Shown: positions 1,419-7,635, numbered from the stretch's first letter. The stretch: DNA of 46,124 nucleotides from a virus (IMGVR_UViG_2547132255_000002), one strand, 5' to 3'. Notes: generated by a model from the letters alone, not told the origin. A program made the numbers and translations.

Positions 1419-2489
1419 TTATTTGATTTCAATTTTGTCCCACTCCCTGCCTCTGTCATCACGATACTGTGATGCCATGGTGTCCGACTTATGCCCGAGA
1501 AGATGTTGAGCAAACTTATCGCTTATCTGCTTCTCATAGAGTCTTGCAGACAAACTGCGCAACTCGTGAAAGGTTGGCGGATCCCCTTCGAAGGAAAGAC
1601 CTGATGCTTTTCGTGCGCGCATAAAATACCTTGATACTGTGCCGGATGAAAGCGGTTCACGACGAGTAGATGCAATTATGGTTTCTCCGCCAAGAATCTC
1701 TTTGCATTTATCAAGTGTTTCCTTCATTGATATCCCGAGAGCATCAACATGCAATGCTGTTGGGATGGCAATTTTTACGCCTGTTTTGCTTTGCTCGACA
1801 TAAAGATATCCATCTACGATATCAGACCACTTCATTTCGCATAAATCACCAACTCGTTGCCCGGTAACAACAGCCAGTTCCATTGCAAGTCTTAGCCAAT
1901 ATGGTGATGATTCTGCTGCTTGATAAATTTTCAGGTATTCGTCAGCCGTAAGTCTTGATCTCCTTACCTCTGATTTTGCTGCGCGAGTGGCAGCGACCGG
2001 GTTTGTTGTTATATGGCCTTCAGCTATTGCCTCTCGGAATGCATCGCTCAGTGTTGATCTGATTAACTTGGCTGACGCAGCCTTGCCCTCGTCTATGTAT
2101 CCATTGAGCATTGCCGCAATTTCTTTTGTGGTGATGTCTTCAAGTGGAGCATCAGGCAGACCCCTCCTTATTGCTTTAATTTTGCTCATGTAATTTATGA
2201 GAGTCTTCTGCTTGATTCCTCTGCTGGCGAGGATTTTTTCGTAGCGATCAAGCCATGAATGTAACGTAACAGAATTATCACTGTTGATTCTCGCTGTCAG
2301 AGGCTTGTGTTTGTGTCCTGAAAATAACTCAATGTTGGCCTGTATAGCTTCAGTGATTGCGATTCGCCTGTCTCGGCCTAATCCAAACTCTTTACCCGTC
2401 CTTGGGTCCCTGTAGCAGTAATATCCATTGTTTCTTATATAAAGGTTAGGGGGTAAATCCCGGCGCTCATGACTTCGCCTTCTTCCCAT
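1419..2489 (-). CDS. int: Tyrosine integrase, lambda Int
   Basis: 356-aa product MGRRRSHERRDLPPNLYIRNNGYYCYRDPRTGKEF... matches recalled lambda Int over its full length. Confidence 0.97.
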   Translation of the reverse strand: MGRRRSHERRDLPPNLYIRNNGYYCYRDPRTGKEFGLGRDRRIAITEAIQANIELFSGHKHKPLTARINSDNSVTLHSWLDRYEKILASRGIKQKTLINYMSKIKAIRRGLPDAPLEDITTKEIAAMLNGYIDEGKAASAKLIRSTLSDAFREAIAEGHITTNPVAATRAAKSEVRRSRLTADEYLKIYQAAESSPYWLRLAMELAVVTGQRVGDLCEMKWSDIVDGYLYVEQSKTGVKIAIPTALHVDALGISMKETLDKCKEILGGETIIASTRREPLSSGTVSRYFMRARKASGLSFEGDPPTFHELRSLSARLYEKQISDKFAQHLLGHKSDTMASQYRDDRGREWDKIEIK

Positions 2490-2685
2490 TTCTGATCCTC
2501 TTCAAAAGGCTACCTGTTACTGGTCGATTTAAGTCAACCTTTACCGCTGATTCGTGGAACAGATACTCTCTTCCATCCTTAACCGGAGGAGGGAATATCC
2601 TGCACTCGCGTACCCATCGACGAACTGTTTCAAGGCTTCTTGGGCGTCGCTGGCGTGCGTTCCACTCCTGAAGTGTCAAGTACAT
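2467..2685 (-). CDS. xis: Excisionase, lambda Xis
   Basis: 72-aa product MYLTLQEWNARQRRPRSLETVRRWVRECRIFPPP... matches lambda Xis; overlaps int start as in lambda. Confidence 0.95.
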   Translation of the reverse strand: MYLTLQEWNARQRRPRSLETVRRWVRECRIFPPPVKDGREYLFHESAVKVDLNRPVTGSLLKRIRNGKKAKS

Positions 2686-2903
2686 CGCAAAGTCTCCGCA
2701 ATTACACGCAAGAAAAAACCGCCATCAGGCGGCTTGGTGTTCTTTCAGTTCTTCAATTCGAATATTGGTTACGTCTGCATGTGCTATCTGCGCCCACAGC
2801 ATCCAGTGGTCATAGCAGTCATTGATGTTCTCTGCTTCGATAACTCTGTTGAATGGTTCTCCATTCCATTCACCTGTGACTCGGAAGTGCATTTATCATC
2901 TCC

Positions 2904-2930
2904 ATAAAACAAAACTCGCCGTAGCGAGTT
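2904..2930 (-). terminator. Putative intrinsic terminator on the leftward (pL) transcript upstream of xis
   Basis: Hairpin AACTCGC-cgta-GCGAGTT followed on the minus strand by a U-run (TTTTGTTTTAT). Confidence 0.45.
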
Positions 2931-2964
2931 CAGATAAAAGAAATCCCCGCGAGTGCGAGGATTG

Positions 2965-3249
2965 TTATTCATTGCCGATATTCACCTTTATCGCGAACAC
3001 CTTTACCGGTTTATCACCGAAGTGGGGATGTGTGATTGTCTTGATTTCATATCCGTCATACGGGACGTCAATTCTGCGGCTGGAATCGTCGCGCTTCGGA
3101 TATCCCTTTGTGATAATCAGGCGGTCATACTCGCGGAACATAATTCGCTTATTCCAGTAGTCATTACACAGGCGATACTCTTCCGTTTTCTCTCCGCGAA
3201 TCATGGCATCGAAGTATTCACCTTTAACGGCAAGTTGCAGGTTAGCCAC
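2965..3249 (-). CDS. Hypothetical protein, possible ASCH/PUA-like fold
   Basis: 94-aa ORF; N-terminus LAVKGEYFDAMIRGEKTEEYR resembles the ASCH beta-barrel start motif; recalled similarity only. Confidence 0.45.
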   Translation of the reverse strand: MANLQLAVKGEYFDAMIRGEKTEEYRLCNDYWNKRIMFREYDRLIITKGYPKRDDSSRRIDVPYDGYEIKTITHPHFGDKPVKVFAIKVNIGNE

Positions 3250-3303
3250 GACCTTCCTCCTTTGGCTTGTGAATTTGTATCGTCATGCCGCTTTGAGTGG
3301 TGA

Positions 3304-3528
3304 CTACAACGACAGAACCAGGCTGAAGACTGTTAAGATTGAATGCTTCGTAAAACGAATCCAAGGCCAGCGCTTTTTATTCTTTCGGTTCCACCAACGC
3401 CATCCCTTGCTACAGGCTACACTGACAATCCACTGTCCACTCCTGTAAGCCATATAAAACCAGATGAGCAAAACCTGAAGGAAGGCTATCCAGTCAATAA
3501 TCGTATATTTCGCGAAGGAGTCCATCAC
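3304..3528 (-). CDS. Small hydrophobic (membrane) protein
   Basis: 74-aa ORF whose ATG overlaps the stop of the upstream gene (ATGA coupling); hydrophobic stretch IIDWIAFLQVLLIWFYMAY. Confidence 0.4.
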   Translation of the reverse strand: MMDSFAKYTIIDWIAFLQVLLIWFYMAYRSGQWIVSVACSKGWRWWNRKNKKRWPWIRFTKHSILTVFSLVLSL

Positions 3529-4422: not shown

Positions 4423-5139
4423 TCACTCTCCTTTCCCCTGAAGCATGGCGTTGCTCCGCTCTATACCATCCAGCGCGATTCGCAGTGCCTGAATTGTGGT
4501 AATGCTATCGTTTGGGGCTATTCCATATCGCTCGAATACAGCGATATGACCGCGCATAATCTCAGGCGTAAGCTCTTTGTAAGCATAAGCAAGAGACTCT
4601 GATGCATTATCCGGCACTACTGGCGATGGCTGTTTAGCTTCTAAATCAGCAATTCTGTCAACCACGGCATCGACAGCATCTGAAAAGCCGAACCAGTTGC
4701 TCCACTCAGGCCTATCCCCGGTTGCTGCAAAATACATATCAGCTAAAGCAGACTCAGCATGGTCACGCTCGTTGATGAGTTGCTCTTCGCTTTTCTCCAG
4801 TTCAGCAATACGCTTACTTCCATCCGCGATTACTCCCTCGTAATACTCGCGTTGCTCGTTGAGTTTTGATTTTGCTTCCTCAAGCTCAACACGCAGCTTC
4901 CCTACCGTTAGCGCAATATCCTCGTTCTCCTGGTCACGGCGTTTGATGTATTGCTGGTTTCTTTCCCGTTCATCCAGAAGCGCCAGCACAATGTGTGGCG
5001 TTATTAAGGACTCAAATTCGGCAACAGCTTGCTCACCTCGCTTGTAATTCTTAATCCCACCTAAATCTTTCGCGTTCTGTGCCGCCTCACGCAGTGCCTG
5101 GTAATTAATTTCGCTCACTGGTTGCCTCCTTTGCGCCAC
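4423..5139 (-). CDS. Hypothetical coiled-coil protein (Ea22-like position)
   Basis: 238-aa ORF, charged coiled-coil-like middle; placement between xis and recombination genes. Confidence 0.5.
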
Positions 5140-5300
5140 ATCGCATTCAGATATTTGTTTTGATTCACGGACGGAAAAGAATTTCTCTTAAGCAATTCCT
5201 CTCTCGATGGCATTGGCTTTACGCGTTGGCGAATAATCATTTCTGCCGGAAGAATGCCGGGATTGTATGCAAGTCCTCTCATGGTAAATTCCTCAGTCAT
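5115..5300 (-). CDS. Hypothetical small protein
   Basis: Internal ATG ([10 protein letters not shown]...) of the 5115-5435 ORF placed right at the stop of the upstream gene; weak. Confidence 0.3.
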
Positions 5301-5589
5301 TACTGATAGCGCCATAGCGTGAGCGGTAATTACGCAGGCGCGGGTCGATATATTCAGGGAAGTGGGTATATGTGGCTTTGCGGAATGGTCGGATTGATGT
5401 CTGGTAAATTCGCTCGCGTTCTTCTTTCTCTGCAAGCCATATACAGTGGCGAGATTCCTTTTCCTCTTTCGTTTCCTGCGGTAGAGACATTATTCGATCG
5501 TAGTTTTTTCTGAATTTATCCAGCACCTCCGATACGGAATTGCCGGAACAGCGGCGCGCGTCATCCGCACCATACAGAGGCGCTGGCAT
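5293..5589 (-). CDS. Hypothetical protein
   Basis: 98-aa ORF in the leftward operon, 16 nt downstream of the exonuclease gene. Confidence 0.45.
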
Positions 5590-5605
5590 GGTTTTCTCCT
5601 GTTGA

Positions 5606-6154
5606 TTATTTAGCTAACTTTTTCCAGATCGCTGAAACGTATTTGGCTTGGTGAATGGCATCATCAAGCGCGTTGTGGCGAGTTCCTTTGAATGGCATAT
5701 CTCGCTTAGGGTCGAATCCTATTACCTTCCCAAGTTCGACGATTGTTCTTACGTCTCGGTCATTCCACCACTGCCACGGAACTGGCTGCCCTGTCAGCGA
5801 ATAACTGTTGCGGAGAATAACGCAGTCAAATGATGCTCCATTCCCCCAAACCTGAACGAATTTGTGGTTAGCGTTCTTTATGATGAATTCAGATAACCAT
5901 GAAAGAGCCGTTGAAAGCTCCTGAGTGTTGCTGGTTAGCGATTTTCTGGCTTCTTCACTCTGTTCCAGCCACCATAAAATCGTTGAAGCGTCAGGACGCG
6001 CCCGATATCGCATTGATGACTCAAGCGAGATATTTACCGAGAACTCTTCTCCTGTTTCTCCGGTATTCGGGTCAAAGAATACTGCCCCAATAGAAATAAC
6101 TGGCGCGTATGGCCCGTTGCCCATTGTTTCAAGGTCAACCATCAAGTGATTCAT
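5606..6154 (-). CDS. DEDDh-type 3'-5' exonuclease (DnaQ-like)
   Basis: 182 aa; Exo I motif MVDLETMG near the N-terminus and Exo III motif HNALDDA near the C-terminus; RBS aagga upstream. Confidence 0.7.
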   Translation of the reverse strand: MNHLMVDLETMGNGPYAPVISIGAVFFDPNTGETGEEFSVNISLESSMRYRARPDASTILWWLEQSEEARKSLTSNTQELSTALSWLSEFIIKNANHKFVQVWGNGASFDCVILRNSYSLTGQPVPWQWWNDRDVRTIVELGKVIGFDPKRDMPFKGTRHNALDDAIHQAKYVSAIWKKLAK

Positions 6155-6162
6155 GTAAGTCC

Positions 6163-6669
6163 TTAAATTGCGTGAATAGCGTGACGAGGGAAGGGGAGAG
6201 TTACTGGTGCAAAGGGTATATCGTCGTCAAAATCCATCGGAGGTTCGTTGTGTTGTGCTGGTGATGATTGCTGCTGTGGCTTCTGTGATTGCCTGCTGGC
6301 TGCTTGTTGTTTGCTGTCGCCAATGCCGCCAAGCATTTGCATCACGCCATTAATTCCGACATGAACCTCGGTTGTGTAACGGTCTTGTCCTGACTGGTCT
6401 TTCCACTTTCTGGTTCTCAGCATTCCCTCGAAATAAATCTGATCACCTTTTTTCACATACTGCCCCACGACCTCAGCCAGTTTCCCGGATACAGCAACAC
6501 GATGCCATTCAGTCAATTCCTTTTGCTCGCCAGTATTTTTATCTCGCCATTGTTCTGACGTGGCTATTGTCAGGTTAGCGAACGCTGTTCCTGATGGTGA
6601 GTATCGAACTTCCGGGTCTTGTCCTACCCGACCAAGGATAATCACCTTATTTACGCCTCTGCTTGCCAT
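6163..6669 (-). CDS. ssb: Single-stranded DNA-binding protein with C-terminal extension after DDDIPF
   Basis: [23 protein letters not shown]... OB-fold core closely matches E. coli SSB; acidic tip DFDDDIPF present but followed by 15 more codons. Confidence 0.9.
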
Positions 6670-7377
6670 TTATGCCGCCTGTTTTAGTTCGTTAACTCTG
6701 ATGTTCATTACCTGAACGCATTTAGCCTGCGCATCCTCATTGCCAGCCATTAATTGCCAGTCATGCTGATAACGTTCTATGAGTTTTTTCTTGTCAGTTT
6801 CTGTCGAAGCATAATCACTGAAGTCTTTCAGGATTTGTTCGCAGTCAACCGATGGAGATTTCTGGTTGGTATTTTCTGGTGATGGTTGATTGCCAGATGC
6901 TGGCATTGCCCATCCCGGCAGCGATGGAGGGGACCAGTAAAATCCTGTTCCATCTTTCAGTTTTGCCCTGTGCCATCCCTGCTTTTTATCGAGAGATGTT
7001 TGTGCGAAACCTTCCTCAAGGTTATACAGATACCGACCGATTCCCCACTGAACGGCAGCACGCTTCATTGCACCGGAACGACCACCTTTGACGGCTTCTA
7101 CCTGCGTGTTTTCAGCAGCATCCCATTTGGTTACCCATTCGGAATCAATCTTGATTGATATGCCGCATTCAACTCCGCCGTTGTTGGGAATATCGCGGTA
7201 TTCATTGCGCCATCCTGCTTTGCCGCAAACATCGTCCAGGCGTTTCATGATTGCCCTGTTCGTGACATAAGCCAGCACCATAGCCCACACCTTGCCATCG
7301 CGTGTTTTACCGCTTTGCTGTATTCGCCATTCGATATCTTCAGGGCTGAATGGCTCATCGAATTTGTTCAAATCCAT
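6670..7377 (-). CDS. Rad52-like single-strand annealing protein (Sak-type recombinase)
   Basis: 235-aa ORF directly upstream of ssb and exonuclease; strong RBS (gaggtg); family assignment from recalled Rad52/22-type prophage proteins. Confidence 0.6.
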   Translation of the reverse strand: MDLNKFDEPFSPEDIEWRIQQSGKTRDGKVWAMVLAYVTNRAIMKRLDDVCGKAGWRNEYRDIPNNGGVECGISIKIDSEWVTKWDAAENTQVEAVKGGRSGAMKRAAVQWGIGRYLYNLEEGFAQTSLDKKQGWHRAKLKDGTGFYWSPPSLPGWAMPASGNQPSPENTNQKSPSVDCEQILKDFSDYASTETDKKKLIERYQHDWQLMAGNEDAQAKCVQVMNIRVNELKQAA

Positions 7378-7476
7378 AATTCACCTCAGAATGGACACGG
7401 CCCAAGGAAATAACGCTGATTTAATACTTCGACTCGGGACAAATTAAGGCATACCCGCATTCCTTCGCGGTCGCCA

Positions 7477-7635
7477 TTATGGCGATACCAGAGAGCTTTC
7501 TGCGTGTACATGCGCCTCTGTAACTTGCTCTCCTTCACTGTGGTTGCAAGTGACATGAATATCTCCTTCGTTGCCGATTAATTCTTTCATCTGACGAATG
7601 AATTCTTCGTCTGACCAGTTATCTGTAAAACTCAT
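7477..7635 (-). CDS. Small protein translationally coupled to cIII (Kil-equivalent position)
   Basis: 52-aa ORF MSFTDNWSDEEFIRQMKEL...; its ATG overlaps the cIII stop (ATGA). Confidence 0.4.
   Translation of the reverse strand: MSFTDNWSDEEFIRQMKELIGNEGDIHVTCNHSEGEQVTEAHVHAESSLVSP

Follow-up and report, generated by a model that had tools for sequence, protein, structure and literature searches.

A conserved C-terminal extension behind the acidic tip of single-stranded DNA-binding proteins on enterobacterial mobile elements, and an adjoining insertion site for endonuclease genes

[quoted passage not shown] Partners bury Pro176 and Phe177 of the tip in a hydrophobic pocket and anchor its carboxyl end, as Arg132 of RecO does (PMC3152348). 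SSBs with canonical ends are encoded also by mobile elements, in recombination or leading-region modules, examples being gp27 of phage Sf6, the SSBs of large E. coli plasmids and the HK620 protein, which ends in NDYPPF; here too the acidic, aromatic-ended tip recruits partners, and the last six residues of the HK620 SSB are needed for Sak4 binding and stimulation (PMC5928155). The subject of this work is the ssb gene (6163..6669, minus strand) of IMGVR_UViG_2547132255_000002, a P22/HK620/CUS-3-like E. coli prophage, analysed as a single stretch of 46,124 nucleotides that is referred to throughout as the window. Its product has the core, the linker plan and the identical tip of chromosomal SSB. 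Unlike the latter, and unlike the canonical-ending SSBs of mobile elements, which stop at the aromatic residue, it continues for 15 conserved residues after the tip (15-16 in the class as a whole), so that no Phe carboxylate is presented to partners such as RecO Arg132.

A sequence-only reading of the window had drawn attention to the extension as an oddity or possible error. That suspicion did not survive comparison with other genomes, since the tail is widespread and is present in plaque-forming phages. Rather, it is considered probable, with moderate confidence, that the tail is a genuine, translated and selectively kept C-terminal extension that defines a class of SSBs on Enterobacterales mobile elements (temperate phages, islands resembling integrative and conjugative elements (ICEs), and IncN plasmids), in which the tip lies inside the chain.

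The tail and the elements that carry it

The ssb gene, comprising 168 codons and a TAA stop, was assigned from the open reading frame (ORF) list, Pfam, PHROG and identity with phage SSBs; residues 6-104 of the product match PF00436 at 1.6e-36, and the protein matches PHROG 44 ('single strand DNA binding protein') at 1.6e-66. All window features described here are encoded on the minus strand. Residues 1-114 (6328..6669) constitute the predicted ssDNA-binding core and residues 115-142 (6244..6327) a Gln/Pro/Ser-rich linker that varies in length and sequence among homologues. The acidic tip follows at residues 143-153 (6211..6243), internal here, and the extension occupies residues 154-168 (6166..6210). 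The extension and the stop codon together fill 6163-6210, and the 15 additional residues that had been described there are real, as is the stated resemblance to host SSB: 78-79 of the 114 core residues are identical to those of Salmonella and Citrobacter chromosomal SSBs, and the tip is identical to chromosomal tips at 11 of 11 positions. In an AlphaFold2 model, a monomer built on 67 homologues, the strands of the OB barrel are confidently predicted, with predicted local distance difference test (pLDDT) values of 80-92 over residues 11-110, and residues 115-168 are predicted to be disordered (pLDDT 31-35; about 31 in the tail). The model gave no support for docking of the tail on its own OB fold, which is weak evidence given that the protein is a tetramer.

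The protein fits the SSB family by its OB fold, disordered linker and D-D-D-I-P-F motif; the usual feature of IPF at the extreme C-terminus fails, with 15 more codons preceding the stop. The first codon after Phe153 is GCA (Ala154) and not a mutated stop. An open frame of this length is in itself unremarkable, as the chance of 15 sense codons after IPF is (61/64)^15, or about 0.5; it is the conservation of the tail that is non-random.

Three isolated phages, mEp235, mEpX2 and HK75, have annotated SSBs that are identical or 99% identical to that of the window, the Salmonella phages epsilon34 and g341c have an identical tail at 90% DNA identity, and phage ECP1 and prophage CP-1639 carry the same tail on ssb genes with just 72-75% DNA identity to that of the window. 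In a large protein collection the 15-residue tail follows IPF in 109 of the 120 best-listed homologues, the named sources of which are Klebsiella, Citrobacter, Salmonella, Enterobacter, Kluyvera, Phytobacter and Pluralibacter. The tail-coding block was found in 405 of 5426 complete E. coli genomes, and in 297 of these it is contiguous with the tip inside a RefSeq-annotated ssb. Among species-level genome matches (n = 80) seven are tailed, all in prophage- or ICE-like contexts, and the other 73 are without such a tail, nearly all stopping at IPF and one at PPF. No tail was seen in a chromosomal-type SSB among those sampled, and many SSBs of large E. coli plasmids match through the tip only. The window's own gene sits on a mobile element, away from the chromosomal ssb locus. 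A search of representative proteins with the last 30 residues returned 13 matches, mostly fragments, because at 50% clustering canonical SSBs stand for the tailed ones.

More than 40 variants of the 15-16-residue tail were gathered from the DNA of one genome per species and from IMG/VR, the window's tail being the commonest. Together they give the pattern [AS]P[VIALF][TG]L[PQ][FY][PSG][RK]H[AT][IV][HY][AVS][IL], summarised roughly as IPF-AP[VI][TG]L[PQ][FY]P[RK]H[AT]I[HY][AV][IL]-COOH, and the window tail conforms also to a looser class pattern (x-P/G-hydrophobic-G/T-L/Y-x-aromatic-x-basic-x-A-I/L-H/Y-x-I/L). Examples are APIGLPYPRHAIYVI from Providencia-type prophages, AYIGLQYPSHAIHSI from Mixta, APFGLQYGKSRIYAL, IGFGYDCSRVAIHAL and LGHGYGVSRKAIYAIS. 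When IMG/VR was searched with a degenerate DNA pattern for the tail, SSBs, the endonuclease described below and remnants were recovered, and no unrelated protein family bearing the peptide was seen among the matches listed. In Salmonella a common form of the tailed SSB, represented by P0078 with 588 members, ends three residues early, at ...PFPRHAI. Separately, some environmental phage SSBs have other, shorter extensions after IPF (LPLHHLAGA, RPLQYLAGA, RHRHWLS or a single N), with an endonuclease gene after the extended stop; these are encoded by the ORF directly upstream of position 1501 in loci L219, L225, L226, L233, L236, L237, L245, L234, L202 and L238.

The same tip and tail are borne by several non-homologous SSB cores and occur beside different genes. 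The gene upstream of the tailed ssb encodes a Rad52/22-type protein in the window, L142 and L144, an AAA_24/Sak4-like protein in L012 (by Pfam) and in L120, L133, L137 and L161 (by shared N-terminal sequence), RecT in L020, and ERF in L135 (by Pfam) and L143 (by sequence resemblance). In ICE-like contexts a DUF3577 gene lies 5' of ssb; Pfam identifies it in L011 and L066, and in L015, L044 and L061 the assignment comes from sequence resemblance. The SSB of IncN plasmid pTR4 shares 13 of 15 tail residues and 80 of 114 OB-core residues with that of the window, whereas its linker differs in length and composition. The tail is thus independent of the neighbouring recombinase, the exonuclease or the type of element, and it is best described as a predicted disordered, conserved peptide motif specific to mobile elements. 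IncN plasmids (pTR4, L372:2005-3353; L373) also carry a SprT-family zinc metalloprotease gene convergent to the tailed ssb, with antirestriction genes nearby.

In distant lineages the DNA of the tail has diverged while the peptide has stayed. Relative to the window, L132 shows seven synonymous and no non-synonymous differences in the tail, L133 five and none, L161 five and one, L120 four and two, and L144 5.8 and 3.2; pooled over the distant lineages, the proportion of synonymous differences (pS) is about 0.40 and that of non-synonymous differences (pN) about 0.04, in lineages that are few and not independent. The 11 tip codons of the distant tailed lineages L012, L142, L143 and L144 differ from the window by seven to nine synonymous and no non-synonymous changes. 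This pattern argues that the tail is translated and constrained, and the internal tip with it: purifying selection acts on the tail peptide, and the tip is kept without any replacement, for which reason the extension resembles a functional feature and not a defect.

An insertion site between tip and tail

What the sequence-only reading overlooked is that, in Sf6-like phages, these 14 codons also close a putative HNH-type endonuclease ORF at its 3' end. The block concerned, CCAGTAACTCTCCCCTTCCCTCGTCACGCTATTCACGCAATTTAA (6163..6207), comprises 45 nt, namely codons 155-168 and the stop, and lies near nucleotide-identical at a module junction in E. coli and Salmonella lambdoid and P22-like phages, where it end-caps either ssb, as in the window, or the endonuclease ORF, as in Sf6, Huey and CurroJimenez. 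In Sf6 the SSB (gp27) ends ...FDDSDIPF, and the next gene, gp26, ends in the window's tail. Huey and CurroJimenez are arranged in the same way, and two endonuclease types with differing N-terminal halves are represented.

Matched pairs of phages define the boundaries of the inserted DNA. The ssb genes of Huey and HK75 are identical up to 28 nt before the stop, after which there are nine mismatches in the tip codons; a 438-nt insert (TAA, 15 nt, then the endonuclease ORF to ..GAGGAA) stands in place of GCA, and identity returns at CCAGTAACT. Comparison of Sf6 with CP-1639 gives the same right-hand boundary. These boundaries indicate that the cassette brings its own tip end and stop and that its ORF runs into the old tail, such that in the occupied site the SSB ends canonically and the endonuclease ORF reads into the tail block. 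The window has this insertion hot spot, which lies where tip and tail meet, in its unoccupied state; the empty site spans 6208..6238, and in relatives the cassette takes the place of GCA (Ala154) and alters the final ~28 nt of the tip codons in part or in full. Every canonical-ending SSB examined in the window's clade precedes such an insert. In about 108 of the 405 block-bearing E. coli genomes the block is detached from the tip, and these are probably occupied sites as well, because the one that was checked, L254, has an unannotated stretch of about 500 nt between ssb and abc2. That genome is E. coli XB2 (NZ_CP162303.1; L254:1058-1559), in which RefSeq/PGAP annotates nothing at the place taken by the Sf6-type endonuclease gene in related phages, and in all three listed genomes that match the 45-nt block alone the feature under the match is given as 'none'.

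The direction of insertion follows from several observations. Most homologues of the endonuclease end in ...HNKPIY or in unrelated short tails, the tail being limited to those nearest the Sf6 and Huey types. In a Providencia-type prophage (L266, reverse strand 4964-5925), behind an SSB that ends DDSDIPF, the block is read in a different frame as the end of an endonuclease from this family (...LDSPTHATLFM). An unrelated 184-aa ORF (MDNTQLCIESYSRHKNLKLVG...) occupies the site in L316 (reverse strand 5811-6416) and L260; here the SSB ends ...DDMIPF, and an intact tail block (..IGLPYPRHAIYVI, followed by a stop) persists untranslated downstream of the ORF. Finally, in L119:2671-3300 and L136:2149-2780 an unrelated AT-rich endonuclease of 165-174 aa (Pfam HNH_3, 1.6e-13) at the ssb/abc2 junction has displaced the tail block and the start of abc2. 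As read from these comparisons, the tail is ancestral to this SSB clade and no relic of another gene.

The Sf6 gp26-type endonucleases, which are the usual content of the cassette, belong to PHROG 2340, a putative HNH-type family without a Pfam model. Across 80 IMG/VR endonuclease loci (L174-L253), from phage contigs of diverse kinds, at least 55 have [ILVMP]PF at the end of the ORF upstream, with more ending in near variants, and the endonuclease gene begins 3-75 nt 3' of the stop behind the acidic SSB tip; the SSBs concerned are of unrelated types. Tips preceding the endonuclease read DDSDIPF in 24 of 49 cases, DDEIPF and DDQDIPF also occurring, whereas tail-bearing SSBs have FDDDIPF in 59 of 94 cases and DDSDIPF in none. 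Like free-standing phage homing endonuclease genes, the cassette is present in some relatives and missing from others at a single defined position, its flanks are nearly identical and the sequence next to it is changed, as found in both Huey/HK75 and Sf6/CP-1639. It resembles them also in that several unrelated endonuclease genes are found at one spot, in a very conserved coding target. The family probably homes on the highly conserved DNA of the SSB tip and carries a variant tip with it. Further Sf6 gp26-type loci are L169-L173, for example L169:2034-2947, L170:2031-2992 and L172:2061-2974.

Other rearrangements affect the same region. Proteins P0011, P0014, P0024, P0053, P0060 and P0063 are chimeras that join an SSB N-terminal part to an endonuclease C-terminal part and the tail, or an endonuclease fragment to the exonuclease; they derive from decay of the ssb-endonuclease-exonuclease region by deletion or frameshift, and the junction in P0014 apparently lies at a shared 'IVG' microhomology. 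In L351 (reverse strand 1606-3506) about 1.9 kb of foreign DNA lies right before the last codons of a disrupted ssb, and the 620-aa frame across this insert resembles the antisense of another gene.

Alternative explanations for the conserved tail

It is unlikely, though of some weight, that the conserved object is the DNA, with the 45-nt block serving as a recombination junction or as the recognition or repair flank of a homing event and its translation being incidental. The block is identical in eight phages and carries one synonymous change in ECP1, with differing flanks on both sides: ssb or the endonuclease gene lies 5' of it, and either the exonuclease gene or abc2 lies 3' of it. It is retained at nucleotide level where ssb differs by 10-28% and whichever of the two downstream genes follows. 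Across E. coli and Salmonella phages the block (CCAGTAAC...ATTTAA) has 0-2 silent changes, pS in the tail being 0-0.16 as against 0.4-0.8 in the OB domain; it persists untranslated after the insertions in L316 and L260, and in L328 and L360 a module exchange cuts mid-block. The block is comparable with the boundary sequences of lambdoid phages, short near-identical stretches between differing modules, others of which carry the label 'bsq' in the annotation of Sf6. In the phages of E. coli and Salmonella it behaves as would just such a module junction, homogenised by recombination. Unlike those boundary sequences, however, it lies inside a coding region, and outside E. coli and Salmonella the peptide is kept where the DNA has diverged, with seven silent changes in 45 nt in L132, five in L133, and 13 of 15 residues retained in IncN plasmids. 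Frame-shifted or stop-containing blocks after IPF in genomes free of the HNH gene, which might be expected if DNA were the sole explanation, are absent here. An RNA-level explanation was discarded too, as no promoter-like or terminator-like site was found in 5200-7600 and folding is unremarkable (z 0.51). The DNA- and peptide-level explanations can both hold, at different scales.

No more probable is a role of the tail in setting the amount or maturation of the protein, either as a non-polar C-terminal degron or as a pro-peptide, removal of which would expose IPF. In every variant the last five residues are non-polar and come after a basic residue (AIHAI, AIYVI, RIYAL, AIYAIS, HLAGA), and non-polar ends of this kind resemble C-terminal degrons; clipping would account for the perfectly conserved tip, and the SprT-family metalloprotease gene adjoins ssb in IncN plasmids. 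Of these ends, AIHAI, RIYAL and HLAGA match neither form of the ssrA/MuA-like ClpX degron (terminal LAA-COOH or basic-rich ..KKAI-COOH). However, the roughly 15 conserved positions, including P155, L158 and P159-H163, are more than a degron needs, and in the phages there is no protease gene beside ssb.

A third possibility is that the tail docks a partner encoded by the phage itself, the Rad52-like annealase or the Rv2179c-like exonuclease, much as the HK620 SSB tail serves Sak4. The arrangement of the recombination module, which is annealase-ssb-exonuclease-abc2 with all genes on the minus strand, is suggestive in this respect. Upstream, the gene for a Rad52/Rad22-family single-strand annealing protein (6670..7377; PF04098, 5.1e-26) abuts ssb, its end being position 6670. 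Downstream lies the gene for an Rv2179c-like 3'-5' exonuclease (5606..6154; PF16473, 2.9e-73), the ATG of which is at 6154-6152; translation of ssb does run up to the exonuclease ribosome-binding site, as had been noted, the TAA at 6163-6165 overlapping the AAGGA Shine-Dalgarno sequence at 6160-6164. The anti-RecBCD gene abc2 (5293-5589; PF11043, Anti-RecBCD_p2, 7.2e-60) comes next, and in other phages it lies directly 3' of the tail block. A requirement for the last six SSB residues by Sak4 is precedented in HK620 (PMC5928155). Nevertheless, the same or a similar tail accompanies Rad52/22, AAA_24/Sak4-like, RecT and ERF annealases, whether or not the exonuclease is present, and is found in IncN plasmids and DUF3577 ICE-like islands without adjacent phage-type annealing proteins or exonuclease, all of which makes a dedicated phage partner distinctly improbable. 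Ead/Ea22 and DUF551 genes, identified by Pfam, are further neighbours of ssb in the window. In E. coli 2013C-4974 (L255:1597-3084) an IS3-family element breaks the exonuclease gene just 3' of an ssb that equals the window's over the 88 bases compared.

Less probable still is a neutral scar: the HNH endonuclease gene would have been lost by an in-frame deletion that left its final 14 codons joined to a canonical ssb as leftover without meaning. The shared 14-residue ends of the Sf6, Huey and CurroJimenez endonuclease ORFs are as such a fusion would require, deletion fusions of ssb, endonuclease and exonuclease do occur (P0011, P0014, P0053, P0060), and CP-1639 pairs a tip of the occupied type (NFDDEIPF) with the tail. 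Yet most endonuclease homologues lack the tail, which only the nearest Sf6 and Huey types possess, and that of L266 reads the block out of frame; diverged tails are found in ICE-like islands, in IncN plasmids and in prophages of Providencia and Mixta type with no such endonuclease there, and synonymous changes far outnumber amino-acid changes in distant lineages. The idea is largely refuted. Lastly, the view that the sequence or its assembly is wrong, or that the gene is a pseudogene whose stop after DIPF was lost, has only the unusual position of the tip in its favour and a probability close to nil: the frame recurs unchanged in numerous phages, prophages, plasmids and metagenomes sequenced independently, and the codon after Phe153 is GCA.

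Predicted function and significance

Canonical partners anchor the terminal carboxyl, a dependence on the free tip that the sequence-only reading had stated correctly, and for this reason an internal IPF should not dock in the canonical manner; the blocked docking predicted from the sequence is plausible. By internalising the tip, the tail would keep host SSB-interacting proteins from docking in the canonical way or change how they dock, and it may itself offer a second docking peptide to some factor that all these hosts share. The SSB of the element could then coat ssDNA while withholding it from host nucleases and the RecFOR pathway, or could pass it on to another partner. Since the tail is tied to no one partner gene or type of element, a cognate phage partner is disfavoured, and a host factor, SSB itself or DNA is favoured as its target. 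A more specific proposal is advanced tentatively and with rather low confidence: that enterobacterial phages, ICEs and IncN plasmids share a capped-tip SSB, in which the tail switches the hub away from host partners needing a free IPF carboxylate (nucleases, RecO and helicases among them), possibly to another common factor, so that ssDNA would be hidden or redirected, and that the HNH family homes on the DNA of the tip, uncaps the SSB and takes over the tail.

Several points weigh against reading the tail as a selected extension that alters docking. The synonymous and non-synonymous counts come from a small set of related lineages, and in E. coli and Salmonella phages conservation of the block at nucleotide level far exceeds that of the rest of the gene, part of it reflecting recent recombination and not selection on the peptide. 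That the tail would block or redirect binding is deduced from the structure of canonical complexes, just as homing is suggested by comparative data. Moreover, the tip is as conserved as in chromosomal SSBs, and mere silencing should let it decay; its conservation points instead to a composite tip-and-tail motif, to clipping of the tail once the protein is made, or to partners able to accept IPF inside the chain. Finally, growth at least does not depend on the tail: Sf6 and Huey grow with canonical-ending SSBs, and L119 and L136 have lost the block entirely.

Two further candidate roles were considered. PVTLPF resembles the hexapeptide form of beta-clamp-binding peptides (consensus QL[SD]LF or QLxLxL) but is without the Gln, and the variants IGFGY, LGHGY and GLMH do not fit, so that this candidate was rejected. 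A type IV secretion system translocation signal, prompted by the IncN and ICE-like carriers, is unlikely as sole explanation, as most carriers are phages.

A literature search found no account of the SSB extension or of the ssb-adjacent endonuclease family, and both are without a published description in that search; the sole prior notice of the shared tail is a note in the Sf6 GenBank record of '14 contiguous amino acids' shared with E. coli SSB. Work on SSB as an interaction hub assumes a free C-terminal IPF, to which the tailed class would be a large, natural and selectively kept exception restricted to mobile elements. HK75 and Huey, and likewise CP-1639 and Sf6, constitute natural near-isogenic pairs with and without the tail. 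An endonuclease family that is found nearly always right after the SSB tip would extend the range of homing targets to one set by a motif for protein interaction. If the tail alters which proteins are recruited, it would provide phages, plasmids and ICEs with a general means to protect or channel ssDNA; recombination modules, conjugative entry or SOS avoidance could be involved, and there would be a bearing on the choice of SSB partners in recombineering.

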